This document shows positions 2,234 through 10,874 of a DNA stretch of 11,382 bases, in pieces (positions within the stretch are counted from its first letter, which is position 1; each line of letters begins with the position of its first letter). The translations under genes were made by a program, and so were the position numbers. Source of the stretch: Thermotogota bacterium (GTDB lineage: Bacteria > Thermotogota > Thermotogae > Petrotogales > Petrotogaceae); assembly GCA_051748045.1 (NCBI GenBank), contig JBNJGY010000052.1, positions 1-11,382 on the forward strand, in the 5' to 3' direction. A model generated the notes under the pieces. It did not search any database. It had not been told where the DNA came from and saw only the letters and a list, made by a program, of their open reading frames with translations.

Positions 2234-2265
2234 CAAATTCTCGTTTGTTTGTTGATAGTTGTTAA

Positions 2266-2286
2266 GATTTTTCTGAAAGAAAAATC
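2266..2286. terminator. Perfect 9-bp hairpin downstream of the methyltransferase; possible terminator or repeat module
   Basis: GATTTTTCT-GAA-AGAAAAATC, flanked by GTTGWTA heptamers. The stem is AT-rich and has no clear U-tract. Confidence 0.3.
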
Positions 2287-2300
2287 GTTGTTAGTAAAAC

Positions 2301-2491
2301 CAATTCCGAAATATAAAAACTCAAAGTAGGTCGTTTTTTAACCTTCGTTCAACAATAAAATTGATGTACAGCTCATATTATCCATCCGTGGATAAATTCG
2401 CATGAAAAACATCCGTGTTTTTCAACATCAATTTTTATATTGTTTCACTCAGTAAAACTCCAATACTTTTCATTTTTATATTTCTTCATTG
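2301..2491 (-). ncRNA. TwoAYGGAY-like structured RNA/repeat element
   Basis: Two terminal hairpins (2378-2395 and 2403-2424) both have the loop ACGGAT on the minus strand. They are closed by stems 2351-2367/2425-2444, 2323-2328/2464-2469 and a perfect 12-bp stem 2308-2319/2473-2484. Confidence 0.65.
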
Positions 2492-2520
2492 TTTAATACA
2501 TCGTTGAAAACTTTTGTGTA

Positions 2521-2581
2521 TGTCATGTCGACTAAACGAAGTGCATGGAGACAACTCATCAGTTAATTTTCGAAGAAAATT
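2521..2581 (+). repeat. REP-like structured intergenic repeat, copy 2
   Basis: TGTCATGTCGACTAA-[AC GAA GT]-GCATGGAGACAACTC-ATCAGT-T-[AATTTTC GAA GAAAATT]. Homologous to 508-576 with a compensatory change. Confidence 0.7.
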
Positions 2582-2624
2582 TTTTCATTTGGATGAAAAA
2601 AACATTGTTAAAAAGATTTGCTAA

Positions 2625-2700
2625 TGTCACCCTGAGCTTTGTCAAATGGTATAAATTTAAAATTTGCAAAGCAATTTGATAAGTTTTATATTTCGAAATT
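2625..2700 (+). repeat. Degenerate TGTCACCCTGAGC-type REP-like element followed by an inverted copy of the 17-bp element end
   Basis: TGTCACCCTGAGCTTTGTCAAATGGT (2625-2650), a TTGC-AAA-GCAA minihairpin, and TTTTATATTTCGAAATT (2684-2700), which is the reverse complement of 2302-2318 with 1 mismatch. Confidence 0.5.
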
Positions 2701-2805
2701 TTTTAATTAAATGTTTTTTATTTATTGTTTTATAGAACTTATAAAATAACAAAACAACCCACATTTTATTTTTACAAAAAAGAAATAAAAATTTAATAAT
2801 CGAAG

Positions 2806-2814
2806 TGGTATAAT
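2806..2814 (+). promoter_or_regulatory. Extended -10 promoter of the ABC operon
   Basis: TGGTATAAT (TGnTATAAT) about 85 nt upstream of the probable start codon. No recognisable -35. Confidence 0.6.
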
Positions 2815-2900
2815 TTATGTCCACTTGTTACAGTGTTTGCTGGCTACAAACGCTGTTTTAAAGAGCCTCTTTATTATCTTAATTAAGGAGGTGCTTTTTT

Positions 2901-3665
2901 ATTACTTCTATAGCACTAGCGAGATCTTCTTTCAGGAGAAACAAGATCTATCTTCTCAATCACTTTGTTAACAACATTGGTAGTTTTGTGTTTGGTTATA
3001 TCTACGTAATGATTTGGAAAGCATTAGCGGGAGATAATCCCGAAAACTATTTTATGATCACTTACGTAATGGTTAACCAGGCGAGTCTTTGGGTAACTAT
3101 GTTTTTACCCAGAGGAACTTACATCCCCCAAAAGGTTTTAGATGGAACAATAGTTTATGAGTTTATAAGACCATATTCTCTTTTATTCGATTCATTTTTT
3201 GAAACCCTTGGGCATATATTCTACAACTTTCTTTTTAGATCAATCCCTATTTATGTTTTTGGTATTTTACTATTAAATACTCAGCTACCCAGTCTATCTA
3301 ACCTTATACCCTTTCTAATTTCTGTTTTTTTAGGATTTTTAATCGCATTTTTTCTGAACTATTTTATAGGTTTGTGGTCAATATTATTTATCGATTATTC
3401 CGGAGCTCATAATTTCTATTTTTTCCTCATGAATACCTTTGGAGGGAACTATATTTCTTTGGAATTTTATCCAGAATTTCTACAACCACTTGTAAAATGG
3501 ATGCCTTTTTCTGGAACGAGTTATATTCCAGGAAGTATTTATCTTGGTAGAATTTCTCTTGTTTATGCTTTTACTCATCAAATTCTATGGGTAATAACTT
3601 TGTTTTTAACAGGGATGTTTTTAACCAAGAAAATTCATAAATACCTTCAGATTCAGGGGGGATGA
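2901..3665 (+). CDS. ABC-2 family exporter permease (DUF990/ABC2_membrane_6-like), probable ATT start, 254 aa
   Basis: The frame is open from a stop at 2880. SD AAGGAGGT (2885-2892) lies 8 nt before ATT at 2901. The added N-terminus (ITSIALARSSFRRNKIY..HF) fits the family. Motifs DGTIVYEFIRP, SLEFYP and WMPF...YIP are present. The ORF track start (GTG 2988) has no SD. Confidence 0.85.
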   Translation: MTSIALARSSFRRNKIYLLNHFVNNIGSFVFGYIYVMIWKALAGDNPENYFMITYVMVNQASLWVTMFLPRGTYIPQKVLDGTIVYEFIRPYSLLFDSFFETLGHIFYNFLFRSIPIYVFGILLLNTQLPSLSNLIPFLISVFLGFLIAFFLNYFIGLWSILFIDYSGAHNFYFFLMNTFGGNYISLEFYPEFLQPLVKWMPFSGTSYIPGSIYLGRISLVYAFTHQILWVITLFLTGMFLTKKIHKYLQIQGG

Positions 3666-4441
3666 GTATGGGGATATTTTTTACTTTGTTCAAAGCGAGT
3701 ATGAAAAAACAAACTCAATATAAAACAGATTTTATAATGAGTATAGTAATGTCTGCGTTGATATTGGTGAGTGATTTTATAGTTTTATTTTTTCTTCTTA
3801 CTAAATTTAACAGTATAGAAGGATGGAATATATACGAAATAGCTCTTATTTATTCAGTGGTTGAATTTGGTCATGGTGTATACAGATTTTTTGCAAATGG
3901 ACTCAATGTCTTTCAGAATCTAATAATTTCTGGAAGATTCGACGGGTTATTAATAAGGCCTATTTCAACATTGACTCAAGTAATATTTCAACGAATAGAG
4001 TTTAAAAGACTTGGGTTTATCATACAAGCTGTGGGGGTTGGTATTTTTGGAATACTGAATTTAAACCTTTCTTTCAATCAGATACTAATATATTTATTTC
4101 TTCTTTTACTATCACCTATAATAACTTTGGAAATAAGTATAATAATAGCTTCAACAGCTTTTTGGATGACAAAAAATGACGATTTAATGGTTTTGGCTTT
4201 TTACTCCACAAAAACAGCTGCAGTCTATCCTACAAGCATATATGATAAATTTTTCCAATATATTTTAACTTTCGCCATTCCTCTTGCAACTGTTGGTTAC
4301 TACCCTGTTCTATATTTAACAGGAAAATCAGAAAATATATTAACACTTTTTTCACCGGTAATAGCTATTTTGATTTTTGGTCCCTTGAGTATATTTATAT
4401 GGAATTTAGGGTTAAAAAAATACACATCTACAGGAACTTGA
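3662..4441 (+). CDS. ABC-2 family exporter permease (DUF990-like), second subunit
   Basis: QYKTDF, SIEGWN..E, GRFDGLLIRP, YPTSIY and IPLATVGYYP motifs, with about 6 hydrophobic segments. ATGA overlap with the upstream gene. Confidence 0.9.
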   Translation: MSMGIFFTLFKASMKKQTQYKTDFIMSIVMSALILVSDFIVLFFLLTKFNSIEGWNIYEIALIYSVVEFGHGVYRFFANGLNVFQNLIISGRFDGLLIRPISTLTQVIFQRIEFKRLGFIIQAVGVGIFGILNLNLSFNQILIYLFLLLLSPIITLEISIIIASTAFWMTKNDDLMVLAFYSTKTAAVYPTSIYDKFFQYILTFAIPLATVGYYPVLYLTGKSENILTLFSPVIAILIFGPLSIFIWNLGLKKYTSTGT

Positions 4442-4454
4442 GGAGGGAAAAATA

Positions 4455-5405
4455 ATGGCATATATAGAAATTAATAATTTGAAAAAATACTACAAAATAT
4501 ATTCAGGTAAATTTTTTAAAAGAACTAAAAAAGTAGTAAAAGCGATAGATGGAATTAACTTAAAAGTTGAAAAAGGAGAATTTTTAGGTTATATAGGTCC
4601 AAATGGAGCTGGAAAGAGTACTACAATTAAAGTTCTAACGGGAATATTGAAGCCTGATTCTGGAGATGTTGTTGTAAATGGACTCAGCCCTCACAAAGAC
4701 AGAAAAAAATATGTTCAAAATATTGGAGCTGTTTTTGGACAAAAAACACAAATGTGGTGGGATTTACCAGTAATTGAAACTTACAAACTATTGAAAAGTA
4801 TATATAAAATCGATGCGAAGGATTATAAAAACCATTTGGAATATCTTATAGAAAGGTTGGACGTGAAAGACTTTCTAAACCAACCAGTGAGACAACTTTC
4901 TTTAGGACAAAGAATGAGAGCAGAATTGATATCTTCCATGATTCACAAACCAGACATACTTTTTCTAGATGAGCCTACAATTGGTTTGGATATTGTTTCA
5001 AAGCATAAAGTTCTCGACTTCTTAAAAGAAGTCAACTCATTTGGAACGACAATATTTCTCACAACACACGATTTAAAAGATATAGAAAAACTATGCCAAG
5101 AGATTATGATTTTGAATAAAGGAAAGATAATATACAAGGGCCATCACAGTAACTTAAACGATCTAACAAAAATACCTTCAAGATTAAAAATAGACATAAT
5201 AGATTACAGATTAAACGAAACTCAAAGAAAAATAATAAAAAACTATAAAGCAGAGTACATATCAGAAAACAAAGAGATAATAATCCCTATAGATGGCTAT
5301 AAGCCAGGAGAAGTTGCAAAAGAATTTTTTCAGTATTTTGAAATAGAAAATTTTAAAGTTGAAGAACCCGGTATAGAAGAAGTAATAAAAGAATATTATT
5401 CATAA
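4455..5405 (+). CDS. ABC transporter ATP-binding protein (ABC-2 drug/viologen-exporter-like)
   Basis: Walker A GPNGAGKST, FGQKTQMWWDLP, signature LSLGQRMR, Walker B ILFLDEPTIGLD, and H-loop TTHD. SD AGGAGG. Confidence 0.95.
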   Translation: MAYIEINNLKKYYKIYSGKFFKRTKKVVKAIDGINLKVEKGEFLGYIGPNGAGKSTTIKVLTGILKPDSGDVVVNGLSPHKDRKKYVQNIGAVFGQKTQMWWDLPVIETYKLLKSIYKIDAKDYKNHLEYLIERLDVKDFLNQPVRQLSLGQRMRAELISSMIHKPDILFLDEPTIGLDIVSKHKVLDFLKEVNSFGTTIFLTTHDLKDIEKLCQEIMILNKGKIIYKGHHSNLNDLTKIPSRLKIDIIDYRLNETQRKIIKNYKAEYISENKEIIIPIDGYKPGEVAKEFFQYFEIENFKVEEPGIEEVIKEYYS

Positions 5406-5430
5406 TTAGGGCTGCATTTGCAGCTCTTTT
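5362..5430 (+). repeat. 69-bp direct repeat, left copy (3' end of the ABC ATPase gene plus terminator)
   Basis: 67/69 identical to 9838-9906. Confidence 0.95.
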
Positions 5431-5433
5431 TTT
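5408..5433 (+). terminator. Intrinsic terminator of the ABC operon
   Basis: AGGGCTGC-ATTT-GCAGCTCT hairpin running into a T7 tract, just after the stop codon. Confidence 0.85.
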
Positions 5434-5437
5434 ATAT

Positions 5438-5470
5438 CATCATAAACCCATCACAATAATTTAATAGAAT
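5438..5470 (+). promoter_or_regulatory. Putative OmpR/PhoB-type tandem boxes and -10 of the cassette promoter
   Basis: CATCATA (5438-5444) and CATCACA (5449-5455) have an 11-bp period and cover the -35 position of TAGAAT (5465-5470). Confidence 0.5.
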
Positions 5471-5498
5471 ATATTTAAAAAAATAGGAGGTTGAAAAA

Positions 5499-7754
5499 AT
5501 GAAAAAATTATTAGTTATTTTTATTGTATTCATTAGTGTTATAAGTATTTCCAATTCTTATGTATTAATTAATGGAAAAAATGAATTTTCAATTGAGCCA
5601 GAAACATTAAAAGTAGAAATTGAGAAGGACGGAATAAAAGAAACAATATCCTTTGCCCAAGAAAAGAAAAATGTGAGTGATTTAATTTTTACAAAGCAAA
5701 ATATATCTTTTCAAAGAGAAAATATTGACTTTAAATTTGAAATAATAAAAGATCACTTAAAAGTAAGTATAAATTCGAAAAATAAAAGTCAAATAAAATT
5801 CCCAATAGTTTCTGCAAAAGAATATCTTATCCCAATAAAAGAGGGAAAATTAATTCCCGCGAATGATGAAACATATTTGGATTTTTATAATGGTTTTTCA
5901 GATGAAGCTTCAAGATTTTTATCTATGAGCTTTATTGGAAATTATTATGAAAACTATGCTTCTTTGTTTGTATACGAAAACCTTTTTAATAATAAAATTA
6001 ATTTTGAAAATAAAGATAATAAATTAAACTATAATTTTATTCATACATTTACAGCTTTAGATAAAACTGAAATTGTTTATAAGTTTTATATAAAAGACAA
6101 GAATATAAATGATATCGCTAAAGAATATAGAGAGTATGTGATTCAAAAAAATATGTTTAAATCATTGGATGAAAAAAATAAAGAAAATTCAAATGTATCC
6201 AAGCTATATGGAGCGCCTCATATTTATTTATGGGATAATAGTATTCTTTCAGTTAACAATGTAAAAAATTGGAGAGGGCTCCAACAAAAGCTTAAAAAAG
6301 ATTTAAATTCAGATACTGATAATTTAACAAAAAAATTATTAAATATATATGAAAATAATCTCATAGAAGAATCAAAAGAACTTGAAAAAACTTTATTAGA
6401 ATTCACCAATGCTGAATGGGTCTACAAGTATTTACAAGCATCAATAGTAACTGGAATAACAAGAAGTATGTATTTAAAAGAATTATATACAGATGAATTT
6501 CATAAATATATATCCGATAAATCTTTGTTAAATCCGAAGACAACAGCAGAAATAGTAAACTTAAATAAAAATTTGGTATATAATTATTATAAGAATTATG
6601 TTGAAGAAATTGAAAATTGGGGAGATGGGCTTTCTAATTATTTAATAAACGATTTATACAATAGTGGTATTCAAAGAGCATGGCTAGGAATAGATAATTG
6701 GGAAACAGGATTCGGAAGTGATCAAATAATAAAAAATGCGAATGATAAAGGCTATATAATAGGGGCTTATGATTCATATCATTCTATACATAAACCAGGG
6801 AAAGCAAGATGGATAACTGCTGATTTTCAAGACAAAAAATTATTTTATTCATCAACATTTAAAAATGAAAATGGAGAATATCTTACTGGTTTTTTAGGAG
6901 AAGGAAGACTTTTAAATCCTGTTTATTCGATAGAAGCTGTAAAAAATAGGATGTCAAACATTATGAGTAACAATATAGCTTATAATTCTTGGTTTGTAGA
7001 TGTTGATGCAACAGGATTTTTTTATGAAGATTACACAAAAGGGCATGAAACTACTAGAAAAATGGACATGAAGTTTAGATTAAAACGAATGGAATATATT
7101 AAAAATGAGTATAATTTAATAATGGGATCTGAAGATGGTTTTGATTTTGCAAATAAAGTAATAACCTATGCACATGGAATGACATCACCAGTAATGGAAT
7201 GGAGCGATCCTGATTTAAGACAAAAAAAAGATTCTAAATATTATTTGGGTAAATACTGGGCTCCTAAAGGAGTACCTTCAAGATACATAAAAGAAGTACC
7301 ATTAAAAGAAAGACATAGAACAGTTTATTTTGATATGAGATATAATGTACCTTTATATGAGCTTGTATATCACGATAGTCAAATTTCATCACATCACTGG
7401 GAAATGGGAAGTATGAAAGCAGTAGAAGAAGTAAAAAACGTTAAGTTAAAAGAAATATTATATGCGATTCCACCATTGTATCATCTTGATAGAGAGTATT
7501 GGGCAAAGTATAAAGAAAGTATTGTAGATCATATAAAAGTATGGGGAGAACTTCATAGCAAAGTTGGAAACAGAGAAATGACATCATTTGAAAATTTGAC
7601 TAAAAATAGATTAATTCAAAAAACAGAATTTGATGATATAAAAGTTATTGCAAATTTTTCAGAAGTAAATTATAAATATGATAAATATACAATAGAGCCA
7701 ACTTCAGCAATAATAATTTATGAGGATAAAATAGTCAATTACAAACCAAAATAA
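5499..7754 (+). CDS. Secreted putative glycoside hydrolase, GH129-like (Glyco_hydro_129)
   Basis: N-terminal signal peptide (MKKLLVIFIVFISVISIS). Motifs LYGAPHIYLW, GYIIGAYDSYHSIH, SWFVDVDATG, GSEDG, YAHG and VPLYELVYHD are ones I recall from this family. SD AGGAGG. Confidence 0.72.
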   Translation: MKKLLVIFIVFISVISISNSYVLINGKNEFSIEPETLKVEIEKDGIKETISFAQEKKNVSDLIFTKQNISFQRENIDFKFEIIKDHLKVSINSKNKSQIKFPIVSAKEYLIPIKEGKLIPANDETYLDFYNGFSDEASRFLSMSFIGNYYENYASLFVYENLFNNKINFENKDNKLNYNFIHTFTALDKTEIVYKFYIKDKNINDIAKEYREYVIQKNMFKSLDEKNKENSNVSKLYGAPHIYLWDNSILSVNNVKNWRGLQQKLKKDLNSDTDNLTKKLLNIYENNLIEESKELEKTLLEFTNAEWVYKYLQASIVTGITRSMYLKELYTDEFHKYISDKSLLNPKTTAEIVNLNKNLVYNYYKNYVEEIENWGDGLSNYLINDLYNSGIQRAWLGIDNWETGFGSDQIIKNANDKGYIIGAYDSYHSIHKPGKARWITADFQDKKLFYSSTFKNENGEYLTGFLGEGRLLNPVYSIEAVKNRMSNIMSNNIAYNSWFVDVDATGFFYEDYTKGHETTRKMDMKFRLKRMEYIKNEYNLIMGSEDGFDFANKVITYAHGMTSPVMEWSDPDLRQKKDSKYYLGKYWAPKGVPSRYIKEVPLKERHRTVYFDMRYNVPLYELVYHDSQISSHHWEMGSMKAVEEVKNVKLKEILYAIPPLYHLDREYWAKYKESIVDHIKVWGELHSKVGNREMTSFENLTKNRLIQKTEFDDIKVIANFSEVNYKYDKYTIEPTSAIIIYEDKIVNYKPK

Positions 7755-7789
7755 AAATAACAAGCAAAAAATTAATTGGAGCTGATTTT

Positions 7790-8446
7790 ATGGTCTTTAA
7801 GGTTTTACTTGTTGAAGATGATAATAAAATTTCCTATATTGTAAAAGAATACCTCGAAGAAGAGGGCTATAGTGTTGATGTTTTAGATAATGGTAACCAT
7901 GTACTTGAAAAAGTATATGAAAATAATTATCATCTCATAATACTTGATTGGATGTTACCTTCAATTTCTGGGATAGTTTTATGTAATCAAATAAGAAAAA
8001 ATTATACAACACCAATTATAATGCTAACTGCAAAAACTTTGGATGAAGATCAAATCAAAGGTTTTATAAGTGGTGCTGACGACTATATAACTAAACCATT
8101 TAATCCAAACTTATTATTACTAAGAATAAAGAATTTATTTAATAGAACATATGGCCTAGAAAACATAATAAAGATAGATAATATACTTATAGATTTTAAT
8201 GCAAAAAAAATTATAAAAGATAATAAAGAAATAAAATTCTCACCTAAAGAATATGATTTGTTAATTTATTTCATAATAAATAAAAATATATTGCTTTCAA
8301 GAGACAAAATATTGTCAGACGTATGGGGATATGATTTTTTTGGTGATGAAAGAACTGTAGATACACACGTAAAAATGATAAGAAAAAAGTTAAACAACAA
8401 TATAATAAAAACTGTTAGAAAAAAGGGTTATATATTAGAATTATAA
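7790..8446 (+). CDS. OmpR/PhoB-family DNA-binding response regulator
   Basis: LLVEDD, phospho-acceptor LDWMLP, IIMLTAK, GADDYITKPF, and winged-helix RTVDTHVKMIRKKL..IKTVR..GY. Confidence 0.96.
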   Translation: MVFKVLLVEDDNKISYIVKEYLEEEGYSVDVLDNGNHVLEKVYENNYHLIILDWMLPSISGIVLCNQIRKNYTTPIIMLTAKTLDEDQIKGFISGADDYITKPFNPNLLLLRIKNLFNRTYGLENIIKIDNILIDFNAKKIIKDNKEIKFSPKEYDLLIYFIINKNILLSRDKILSDVWGYDFFGDERTVDTHVKMIRKKLNNNIIKTVRKKGYILEL

Positions 8447-8464
8447 AGCTTTTTATTGTAAGTA

Positions 8465-9826
8465 ATGGGGGGATTTATGTCTTTAAAACAAAAGAATATT
8501 TTAATTTTTATATCTTTGTTTATATTTGTTTTTTTATTCATGTTTTTAATTACAAATAATTATATGGAGAAATTTTATATTTGGGAAAATAATAGACAAA
8601 TTAAAAGTTTGTTGAGTAATGATTTAGAATTTTTTGAAAATTATGAAAAACAAGATATCGTTATTAATATATTTGAATATACAGATGATGAGCGAATTTT
8701 TAATGATAGATTAAGACTGGGTTTTCATGATAAAAAATTGAACCTTACACGAATTTGGCTTATAGAAGAAAGGTTAAAAAATTTAAGCAATAAATATGAA
8801 ATAATCAACTATAGTCAGCCTAACCTTCAAACCTCAATATTAGTTGGTATAAAAAAACAAGATAAAAAAGTTATATCATTAGCAAAACCACTACCTTTTT
8901 TTGATGAAAGTATAAAAACTTTGAATAAATTTAATTTGATCATTTTTCTGTTTTCGTTGATTATTATAATTTTAGTTTTATTTTTATATAGTAATCATCT
9001 TATAAAAAAAATAAATAAAATCAATAAACAAGCAAAAAATATATATGATCTAAAATTCGACTACAAACCTTATATAAAAGGAAAAGACGAATTATCTAAC
9101 TTATCTTTTTATCTAAACGATGTATCTGAAAACCTTGAAAAGTCTATAAATGAGCTGAATAATAGGGTAGATTTTTATAAAGAAATGATCGATAAACAAA
9201 AACAATATGTATCTAGCCTTGGGCATGAATTAAAAACCCCTTTAACAGTTTTAAAAAGTTATACCCATAGGTTGAATGAAAAAAACAATCAAGATGATTT
9301 AAATATTTATATTAATAATATAATAGAGGAATCTGATAATTTGAATGATTTAATATCTTTATTTCTAAACTTCATTAAATATGATTATTATAATTTGGAT
9401 TTAAAAGAAAATGATATTAATGAAATATTGAATGAAGTAATTAATAGATATGCTGTTTTTTTAGAAGACAAACAACTTATCTTAGATACTTTTTCTGCAA
9501 AAAAGAAAGTTGATAGAGATTTAATTAAAATAGTCTTTGATAATTTAGTTTCTAATGCTATAAAATACGGGGAAAAAGAAATCAAGATAGAATTTAAGAA
9601 CATAAACGATGATTTGATTATCAGTTTCATTAATAAAGGAAAAATAAAAGAAAAAGATATTGAAAGTATTTTTGAACCATTTTATAGAATTGATAAATCG
9701 AGGAATAAAAAAGTTTCTGGTCATGGATTGGGACTTTCTATAGCAAATGAAATAATCAAAAAACACAATGGATTGATAAAAGTAAAAAATGATAATAGAA
9801 ATATTGTTTTTAGTATTATATTATAA
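8465..9826 (+). CDS. Membrane sensor histidine kinase (2 TM, HAMP, HisKA, HATPase); the start may be ATG 8477
   Basis: H-box HELKTPL, N-box NLVSNAIKY, F-box IFEPFYR, G2 GHGLGLSI, two TM helices, and a HAMP-like KDEL..L segment. Confidence 0.95.
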   Translation: MGGFMSLKQKNILIFISLFIFVFLFMFLITNNYMEKFYIWENNRQIKSLLSNDLEFFENYEKQDIVINIFEYTDDERIFNDRLRLGFHDKKLNLTRIWLIEERLKNLSNKYEIINYSQPNLQTSILVGIKKQDKKVISLAKPLPFFDESIKTLNKFNLIIFLFSLIIIILVLFLYSNHLIKKINKINKQAKNIYDLKFDYKPYIKGKDELSNLSFYLNDVSENLEKSINELNNRVDFYKEMIDKQKQYVSSLGHELKTPLTVLKSYTHRLNEKNNQDDLNIYINNIIEESDNLNDLISLFLNFIKYDYYNLDLKENDINEILNEVINRYAVFLEDKQLILDTFSAKKKVDRDLIKIVFDNLVSNAIKYGEKEIKIEFKNINDDLIISFINKGKIKEKDIESIFEPFYRIDKSRNKKVSGHGLGLSIANEIIKKHNGLIKVKNDNRNIVFSIIL

Positions 9827-9837
9827 AAATGATTTAA

Positions 9838-9906
9838 AAGAACCAGGTATAGAAGAAGTAATAAAAGAATATTATTCATAGTTAGGGCTGCATTTGCAGC
9901 TCTTTT
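9838..9906 (+). repeat. 69-bp direct repeat, right copy (orphan 3' fragment of the ABC ATPase gene plus terminator hairpin)
   Basis: Encodes the same EPGIEEVIKEYYS* and the same hairpin. Begins 11 nt after the kinase stop codon. Confidence 0.95.
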
Positions 9907-9923
9907 CATTATCACGTTATAAT
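9894..9923 (+). promoter_or_regulatory. Possible ribokinase promoter
   Basis: TTGCAG (9894-9899, inside the repeat hairpin), 18-nt spacer, TATAAT (9918-9923). Confidence 0.45.
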
Positions 9924-9944
9924 AGAGAAACAAGGGGTGATAAG

Positions 9945-10874
9945 ATGATAGGAATTATCGGCAGTACTAACATAGACGTATATTTAAAAACAGATCACTT
10001 TACAGAACCAGGCGAAACTCAAAATTCATTAGATTATAAAATATTTTATGGTGGAAAAGGAGCCAATCAAGCTTCTACAGTTTCTAAGCTATCTAAAAAA
10101 CAAACAGCCTTTTTAACTTGTATTGGGAATGATTTTTATGGGACTGCTCTTCAAAAAGAATTTGAAGCAAATGATCTTATTGGATATCAAATATTAAAAG
10201 AAGAAAAAACAGGAAGAGCATTTATTGAAGTAGAAAAAACTGGTGAAAACAGAATAATAACAGCACCAGGAGCTAATCATAAAATGAAAAAAGATATGGT
10301 AGATGATTTTTTAGATAGATTTAATAAAGATTTAGATATAGTTTTAATTCAAAACGAATTACCAAAAGAAATAATAGACCATGCCATAACAAAATTAAAA
10401 GAAAAAAATATTAAAATATTTTACGATCCAGCGCCAAAAGAAAAAACAGATTTAAACAATCTGGATAATATCTTTGTCTTGACTCCTAACCTAAATGAAT
10501 TTTCATATATATATGAAAAAATAATAAATAAAAAATTTGATGAAAATAATATTAAAGAACAATTATCAGAATTAAAGGAAAAAACAAAAATAGATAATAT
10601 CATTATCACGCTTGGTAAAAAAGGATCACTATATATAAATAAAAATAATGAGATAAAAGAAATAGATACATTTAAAGTTAAACCATTAGATACCACAGCA
10701 TCTGGAGATGTTTTTAACGGAACATTAGCATTAGAATACTTTGAAACAGACGATTTAGAAAAAAGCATTAAAAAAGCCTCCGCTGCAGCAGCTTTATCCA
10801 CAACAAAAATAGGAGCACAAACTTCAATTCCAACAATAGAAGAAATAGATGATTTTTTAAAAAATAATGGTTAA
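9945..10874 (+). CDS. rbsK: Ribokinase (PfkB family)
   Basis: IIGSTNID, PGET, GGKGANQA, GENRI..APGAN, LIQNE, DPAP, TPNLNE and DTTASGDVFNG. SD AAGGGGTGA precedes ATG 9945, whereas the ORF-track start at 9894 lies inside the terminator. Confidence 0.9.
   Translation: MIGIIGSTNIDVYLKTDHFTEPGETQNSLDYKIFYGGKGANQASTVSKLSKKQTAFLTCIGNDFYGTALQKEFEANDLIGYQILKEEKTGRAFIEVEKTGENRIITAPGANHKMKKDMVDDFLDRFNKDLDIVLIQNELPKEIIDHAITKLKEKNIKIFYDPAPKEKTDLNNLDNIFVLTPNLNEFSYIYEKIINKKFDENNIKEQLSELKEKTKIDNIIITLGKKGSLYINKNNEIKEIDTFKVKPLDTTASGDVFNGTLALEYFETDDLEKSIKKASAAAALSTTKIGAQTSIPTIEEIDDFLKNNG

Follow-up and report, generated by a model that had tools for sequence, protein, structure and literature searches.

A gene cassette of about 4.4 kb, encoding a GH129-family glycoside hydrolase, a response regulator and a histidine kinase, has been inserted behind an ABC transporter ATPase gene in a Thermotogota bacterium of the family Petrotogaceae, and a 69-nt copy of the end of that gene lies on either side of it. 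The DNA analysed, here called the window, is the whole of contig JBNJGY010000052.1 (C52), 11,382 nt, from a draft genome (G000) of 158 contigs, 2.41 Mb and 28.2% GC. It was compared with two genomes of the same genus (G001 and G002), genomes of other genera in the family (G003 and G006), two metagenome contigs (L023 and L024) and public metagenome runs (X1, X2, X4 and X5). We regard the arrangement as a genuine gene-gain polymorphism, in which a cassette made of cargo only was probably captured by general or microhomology-guided recombination. As a genomic islet between direct repeats it belongs to a known general kind, and as a gene-gain event it is fairly ordinary; its appeal lies in the exact borders, the three allelic states of the locus and a possible recent transfer with no recombinase in cis.

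The duplicated gene end

A repeat search of the window yields one 69-nt direct repeat, at 5362-5430 and 9838-9906, whose copies lie 4476 nt apart and agree at 67 of 69 positions (97%). Since the other repeat families found there are at most 51 nt long, at 67-78% identity, the pair is far beyond chance. All features from the permease genes that precede the ATPase gene to the sugar kinase gene rbsK are on the plus strand. The left copy carries the functional tail of the ATPase gene (4455-5405), namely the last 44 nt of the open reading frame with its final 13 full codons and TAA stop, followed by a terminator hairpin at 5408-5427. The right copy begins 11 nt past the kinase stop at 9826 and consists of a non-functional remnant of the ATPase tail (13 codons and TAG) and the native terminator, the same terminator-like hairpin, at 9884-9903. 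It is a real gene-end remnant, because the ATPase tail is conserved in orthologues of two other genera (G006 and G003). Both differences between the copies are silent: C versus A at 5369/9845 (CCC and CCA, both proline) and A versus G at 5405/9881 (TAA and TAG, both stops). A sequence-only reading of the window had described the repeat, the two silent differences and an interval holding only a hydrolase, a regulator and a kinase, all of which the repeat search and a Pfam scan confirm.

How sharp are the borders of the repeat? BLAST extends it to 5319-5430 and 9799-9906, at 84% identity. This extension was rejected, as the added part is not significant (93 of 1000 shuffles score equally) and codes for a C-terminal kinase sequence of the form also seen in G006 and G003. 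Similarity ends abruptly at 9838, and by the same shuffles nothing significant remains to the left of the right copy. A search of the whole genome with the 69-mer, one of the checks suggested earlier, returns just the two copies, both in C52, and no looser copy occurs elsewhere in the genome when up to 5 mismatches are allowed in the tail and up to 3 in the hairpin. The only fold found for the repeat is the 8-bp terminator stem.

An empty site and three nested states of the locus

The sequence-only reading had predicted an allele in which the ATPase gene, a single 69-mer and rbsK follow one another. Such an allele is present in L023 and L024, and the insertion is thus real. Positions 13-2683 of L023 match window 2765-5439 and positions 2607-3348 match 9838-10579, and L024 matches in the same way. 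The order in both contigs is permease 1, permease 2, ATPase, one 69-mer and rbsK, with no cassette, with a terminator orthologous to the one at 9884-9903 and with the same 63-nt spacer before rbsK. Between the two contigs, which come from a related lineage, there are 5 differences in 1730 nt, and both are about 85% identical to the window (86% in the rbsK region). The remaining eight of the ten metagenome loci found are 33-52% identical, and a search of genome contigs with the ATPase C-terminus gave 11 loci, the best at 50% identity, none of them informative for this site.

A simpler state is seen in G001, where window 652-2231 matches contig C11 at 25489-27074 (82% identity) and window 9883-11382 matches 23979-25479 (81%). 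Because these two flank matches lie 9 nt apart on one contig, G001 is without all of 2234-9882, the segment that in the window comprises dispersed repeats, the ABC-2 operon, the left repeat, the cassette and the ATPase-tail remnant. Its junction reads methyltransferase stop, 8 nt, a hairpin orthologous to 9884-9903 and then the rbsK promoter region. The locus exists in three nested states: no insert (G001), the ABC operon only (L023 and L024), and the ABC operon with the cassette (the window). As G001 retains the terminator before rbsK without any ABC operon, the 69-mer is a composite, with an ATPase tail that is part of the ABC operon and a terminator that is part of the ancestral spacer on the rbsK side.

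The ABC-2 operon is itself variable, being missing in G001 and present at this site in the lineage of L023 and L024. The difference reflects either an insertion or a deletion in G001, there being no outgroup with the same neighbours. A protein query with permease 2 finds no match in G001 or in G002, the latter only 68% complete. ABC-like pieces about 88-95% identical also occur in runs X2 and X4, where they are seen without their rbsK side.

Could the right copy instead be what remains of a deleted paralogous ABC operon, a possibility that the earlier reading had itself named as refuting, or could the assembly have falsely joined an empty site to a 4.4-kb circle? The genome is a draft in which the window makes up an entire contig. 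Run X1, probably the source run with 94% of the sampled words, is available as k=31 contigs that break inside the repeats. Both explanations are nevertheless extremely improbable. Apart from the abrupt end of similarity at 9838, the genome has no second permease gene and no ATPase paralogue above 37% identity, and the empty allele carries its one copy in the exact register of the duplication. The two single-nucleotide differences lie 36 nt apart and should phase the copies for k above about 35, as reasoned from the sequence for an assembler whose k is not known. A source-run contig covering 2534-5404 has both left-copy states; together with a second record (5401-6489) it agrees with the path from the ATPase gene into the GH129 gene with 0 differences.

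Two sister copies

Comparison with the empty site also bears on where the second copy came from. Each copy is identical to the empty-site sequence at 62 of 69 positions. Because the copies share six states that differ from the empty-site lineage, and that are derived with respect to it, they are sister sequences. This points to a second copy made at this locus or received from a very close relative, and it argues against a foreign element with a diverged attachment (att) site of its own.

With the empty-site sequence as the reference for polarity, position 8 changed in the left copy and position 44 in the right one. Only silent changes would persist in the left copy, which is functional; the right copy is a dead remnant, where changes of every kind are neutral. 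To explain the all-synonymous pattern, it is therefore not necessary to assume two functional alleles brought together by integration, as had been suggested. The earlier interpretation as a whole is partly supported.

A glycosidase with its own two-component system

The cassette extends roughly from 5440 to 9837, and Pfam finds three genes and nothing else between the repeats. Its own upstream region of 59 nt (5440-5498) includes a ribosome-binding site and a promoter-like site, the latter reading TTTATA, 18 nt, AATAAT and spanning 5431-5460. The hydrolase gene (5499-7754) encodes an N-terminal signal-like hydrophobic segment and, at residues 386-709, a match to PF11308 (E 1.9e-108; 362.8 bits against a cut-off of 25.6) that covers profile positions 2-323 of 324. 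It is followed by an OmpR-type response regulator (7790-8446) with Response_reg and Trans_reg_C domains and by a membrane histidine kinase (8465-9826) with HAMP-like, HisKA and HATPase_c regions, whose C-terminus is complete by comparison with G006 and G003. An 11-nt spacer (9827-9837) then contains the right junction, where cassette and duplicated target meet. Going by family membership, the cassette would provide a secreted glycosidase of the GH129 type next to its own two-component sensor. The characterised member of GH129 is an alpha-N-acetylgalactosaminidase of Bifidobacterium.

The same trio, in the same order, is conserved in G006 (46, 63 and 37% amino-acid identity for hydrolase, regulator and kinase) and in G003 (33, 53 and 36%), and GH129 is present in 3 of 26 genomes of the family, our own included. 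Unlike the cassette in the window, the trios of G006 and G003 lie far from the ABC operons of these genomes, with no adjoining ABC operon and no flanking repeat. Reading the DNA by eye, we take the sequence 3' of the kinase in G006 to be tRNA-like, and the open reading frame in the same position in G003 resembles UvrA. Judged from G006, the cassette genes evolve no slower than the ABC genes. A comparison of base composition inside and outside the cassette, also suggested earlier, gives 23.9% GC against 28.2% for the genome, which is the 2.8th percentile of genome windows of the same size. Close relatives of the hydrolase were sought among species-representative genomes, where none of 90 pattern matches was confirmed. 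A protein cluster look-up found six of eight proteins in the collection, and the clusters of the ATPase, GH129, regulator, rbsK and methyltransferase proteins were singletons, so that the look-up added no independent evidence on the change of identity seen in run X2.

Between the left repeat and the upstream region lies a short zone, 5431-5439, made of a T-run and TATCA. Similar sequence follows the terminator at the empty site and, as a T-run with CATCA, precedes GH129 in G006, and the zone may represent a microhomology junction. A conserved motif upstream of GH129 was also considered as a marker of the left end of the cassette and set aside as weak, 47 of 2000 shuffles scoring as well for G006 and 287 of 2000 for G003.

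No recombinase in the cassette and no helper that shares its site

What could have moved the cassette? Pfam detects no recombinase or transposase domain in 5431-9837, in line with the sequence-only reading, which had called the cassette integrase-less. There are no terminal inverted repeats either, 259 of 1000 shuffles scoring equally. Target duplications made by transposases usually measure 2-14 bp, far shorter than 69 nt. A transposon or insertion sequence was rejected on all three counts, namely the missing transposase domain, the missing inverted repeats and the length of the duplication. An integron gene cassette was rejected as well, as the repeat folds only into the 8-bp terminator stem, the insert comprises three genes with an upstream region of their own, and neither of the only two tyrosine recombinases of the genome is nearby.

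These two tyrosine recombinases are the entire complement found, with no serine recombinase. One has an open frame of 294 aa and, judged by size alone, would be Xer-like. The second, encoded on contig C85, is an integrase of the lambda type, 424 aa long, in which arm-binding, SAM-like and catalytic domains are recognised. It belongs to a putative integrative element of about 5.6 kb (L044 1-5797) that is bounded by perfect 99-nt direct repeats at 1-99 and 5608-5706, with the integrase gene 15 nt from the right repeat. The element also encodes a DUF6291 protein, a zinc-ribbon/bPH_2 protein and two open reading frames without a family, and it contains no tRNA gene. Its repeats do not contain the 69-mer, which is found only in C52. 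A genome-wide scan for direct repeats (40-400 nt, at least 88% identity) gave 10 pairs, 6 of them low-copy, the C85 pair among these. The C85 element is what a site-specific element looks like in this organism, and the resemblance to the GH129 cassette is limited to a segment of about 5.5 kb between direct repeats: the C85 repeats are 99 nt and 100% identical and the element has a lambda-type integrase, whereas the GH129 cassette has none and its repeats differ at 2 positions. In the plasmid collection the best matches correspond to single genes, at about 65% identity, and reach no more than 15% of the query; the phage collection gave no match.

It is possible that the cassette is an element without an integrase that is mobilised in trans, as are cis-mobilizable elements (CIMEs). 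The two 69-mers would then be left and right attachment sites (attL and attR), and a 4476-bp circle would reintegrate at the 3' end of the ATPase gene through a site-specific recombinase encoded elsewhere or supplied by an incoming helper. In the window, direct repeats at the 3' end of a gene restore the gene, and the empty site has exactly one repeat copy. CIMEs by definition keep attL and attR after losing their integration and transfer genes (PMC5704250). With the CIMEs of streptococci, decayed from integrative conjugative or mobilizable elements (ICEs or IMEs), the cassette shares the lack of an integrase in cis, direct repeats at the 3' end of a protein gene and cargo between them.

We nevertheless consider such trans-mobilisation unlikely. 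The cassette has no relic of integration, transfer or other mobile-element genes, and the distances between repeats and genes, just 59 and 11 nt, leave no room for arm-type sites. The repeat combines the ATPase tail with the native terminator of this locus. No phage-type integrase is known from the genome besides the one in the C85 element, which has 99-nt repeats of its own; there is no serine recombinase, and the genome holds no third 69-mer that a helper could share. Plasmid matches cover at most 15% of the query, and the phage collection gave none. In contrast to the streptococcal CIMEs, the window has no relic of an ICE or IME, no cognate integrase and no second element at the site. For lack of relic genes, a third 69-mer and a suitable integrase, a CIME derived from an ICE or IME was therefore rejected. 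The sequence-only reading had left the choice between site-specific recombination in trans and short-homology recombination. The second remains a live candidate; for the first no sign was found: there is no space for att arms, no helper element sharing the site, and no circle or empty form among the contigs of the same sample.

Near-identical cassette pieces in another metagenome

The strongest point in favour of a cassette mobilised as a unit comes from run X2, which holds 43% of the sampled words. Among the matches listed, four X2 pieces of the cassette differ from the window at 2 of 558, 3 of 1106, 1 of 455 and 7 of 702 nt (13 of 2821 in sum, 0.46%). Four pieces of the methyltransferase and ABC genes differ at 48 of 453, 24 of 462, 111 of 1300 and 80 of 685 nt (263 of 2900, 9.1%). 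Cassette and flank pieces lie on contigs of similar depth, 5-9 and 7-15 respectively. Divergent pieces extend to 5270 and near-identical ones start at 5792, so identity switches within a few hundred nucleotides of the left repeat. A near-identical cassette beside ABC and methyltransferase pieces that are about 9% diverged, and the place of the switch, would fit trans-mobilisation. The pattern hints at a recent exchange of the cassette between lineages; alternatively, the pieces may stem from different organisms in the metagenome.

The run data can show neither an excised form of the cassette nor its absence, as k=31 contigs break inside repeats, and under this limit no joint of 5430 to 9907 appears among the joints listed for X1, X2, X4 and X5. 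The joints that are listed were treated as spurious, having sides of 20-42 nt or lying inside dispersed repeats. Run X4 contains ABC-like pieces about 87-94% identical, and several cassette bins have depth 0 there, a lack of cover that is not evidence of absence.

Routes by which the cassette may have entered

The cassette, with its own upstream region, was inserted just behind the terminator, between the ABC ATPase gene and rbsK. The event duplicated 69 nt of the target, perhaps up to 78, made up of the final 44 nt of the ATPase gene with its stop codon, 2 spacer nucleotides and the terminator. Owing to the duplication, the C-terminus of the ATPase is preserved, each of the two operons is closed by a terminator and the promoter of rbsK is left intact. 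For the capture by general or microhomology-guided recombination that we favour, two routes can be envisaged. A circular intermediate carrying the 69-mer may have integrated by a single crossover. Alternatively, one template-switch or illegitimate event may have left the locus after the terminator and re-entered it about 70 nt upstream. In either route the duplication would be a by-product, as opposed to an att site belonging to a dedicated element. After the insertion, the repeats would permit loss of the cassette by RecA-type recombination, and they could serve as a portable patch of homology for transfer into relatives that carry a single 69-mer.

The first route has a precedent in Escherichia coli, where a single crossover between a circle and the chromosome gave duplications of the homologous segment of 109-950 bp (PMC3240628). 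The window resembles such Campbell-type integration in that the directly duplicated segment is exactly the shared homology, the target gene is restored, a single copy occupies the empty site and recombination between the repeats can reverse the event. It differs in that the homology would amount to just 69-78 nt and no circle or vector is seen; moreover, a circle made of the cassette and a 69-mer would itself need an illegitimate join.

A third route starts from a close relative that already had the cassette behind the same ABC operon. Homology within the ABC genes would have guided the left end. The right end would be an illegitimate join placed 44 nt before the ATPase stop of the recipient, whose own tail and terminator would then remain as the right copy. 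Integration of DNA that is homologous at one end and illegitimate at the other is a known mechanism (PMC3240628). It accounts for a left copy contiguous with the ATPase body, a right copy contiguous with native rbsK, and a difference of 2 in 69 positions, as might be found between two close alleles. Yet the ATPase gene shows no mark of a donor-derived tract, and an earlier, unobserved donor is needed that had the cassette and no duplication, so that more events are required. We assign this homology-facilitated route a low probability. That the cassette came in by one of the three, crossover, template switch or homology-facilitated illegitimate recombination, seems to us quite likely.

Several points weigh against capture by general or microhomology-guided recombination. 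A homology of 69 nt is short for RecA to act on, above all when the lineages are diverged. At the left junction the microhomology has weak statistics (47 and 287 of 2000 shuffles). The identity switch near the left repeat in X2 would also fit a discrete unit moved site-specifically, although the X2 pieces give no location for the cassette and may not belong to one organism. Finally, neither a circle nor an empty form appears in the source run, whose contigs could not have resolved one.

If the cassette in X2 occupied the same site, with the identity switch at the repeat edges, a short duplicated gene end would be acting as a portable landing pad; otherwise the window would document a routine gain of accessory genes at an intergenic terminator. 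A bolder proposal makes the cassette a discrete, recombinase-free mobile unit, with the 69-mer as a portable attachment site served by a host or helper recombinase. We find this very unlikely. If true, it would mean a trans-mobilised operon cassette that always regenerates the end of its target gene and the terminator, across lineages about 9% diverged. The base-exact borders and the three nested states offer a clean natural case of how an operon consisting of cargo only may enter a genome without a recombinase and then spread.

Neighbouring genes and dispersed repeats

Upstream of the ABC operon lie a CDF cation efflux gene (728-1624) and a SAM methyltransferase gene (1643-2233), both from Pfam and open-reading-frame annotation. 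The operon itself consists of two ABC2_membrane_6 permease genes (Pfam; 2988-3665 and 3662-4441) and the ATPase gene (Pfam ABC_tran, E 5.2e-28), the latter with orthologues in G006, G003, L023 and L024. The first permease gene probably begins upstream of the annotated GTG at 2988. Its frame is open from 2883, and AGGAGG precedes an ATT at 2901 by 9 nt. The stretch of 29 codons ahead of the GTG encodes the same amino acids in L023, where it carries synonymous changes and where the GTG itself reads GTC; the non-canonical ATT start thus appears likely.

Positions 1-660 and 2234-2700 are modular dispersed repeats, each with about 40 BLAST pieces genome-wide, many of them at contig ends. Copies at 90-97% identity are also present in G001, and their depth in the metagenome runs is very high. 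The repeats coincide exactly with the left border of the 7.65-kb segment missing from G001. An Rfam search of the window gave one sub-threshold match only, outside the repeat and cassette: a module of the dispersed repeats resembles TwoAYGGAY RNA (2326-2465, minus strand; 34.7 bits against a gathering score of 43).

Downstream of the right repeat, the native promoter and ribosome-binding region begins at 9907 and leads to rbsK, a PfkB-family (rbsK-like) sugar kinase gene at 9945-10874 (PfkB, E 1.2e-54), followed by a membrane open reading frame from 10889 to the contig end. A -35-like TTGCAG, recognised by eye, falls inside the terminator hairpin and is followed after 18 nt by TATAAT (window 9894-9923). 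This layout is kept in G001, L023 and L024, and the left repeat copy duplicates only the -35 half. As the -35-like hexamer lies within the hairpin and the layout is conserved, the rbsK promoter may overlap the upstream terminator.

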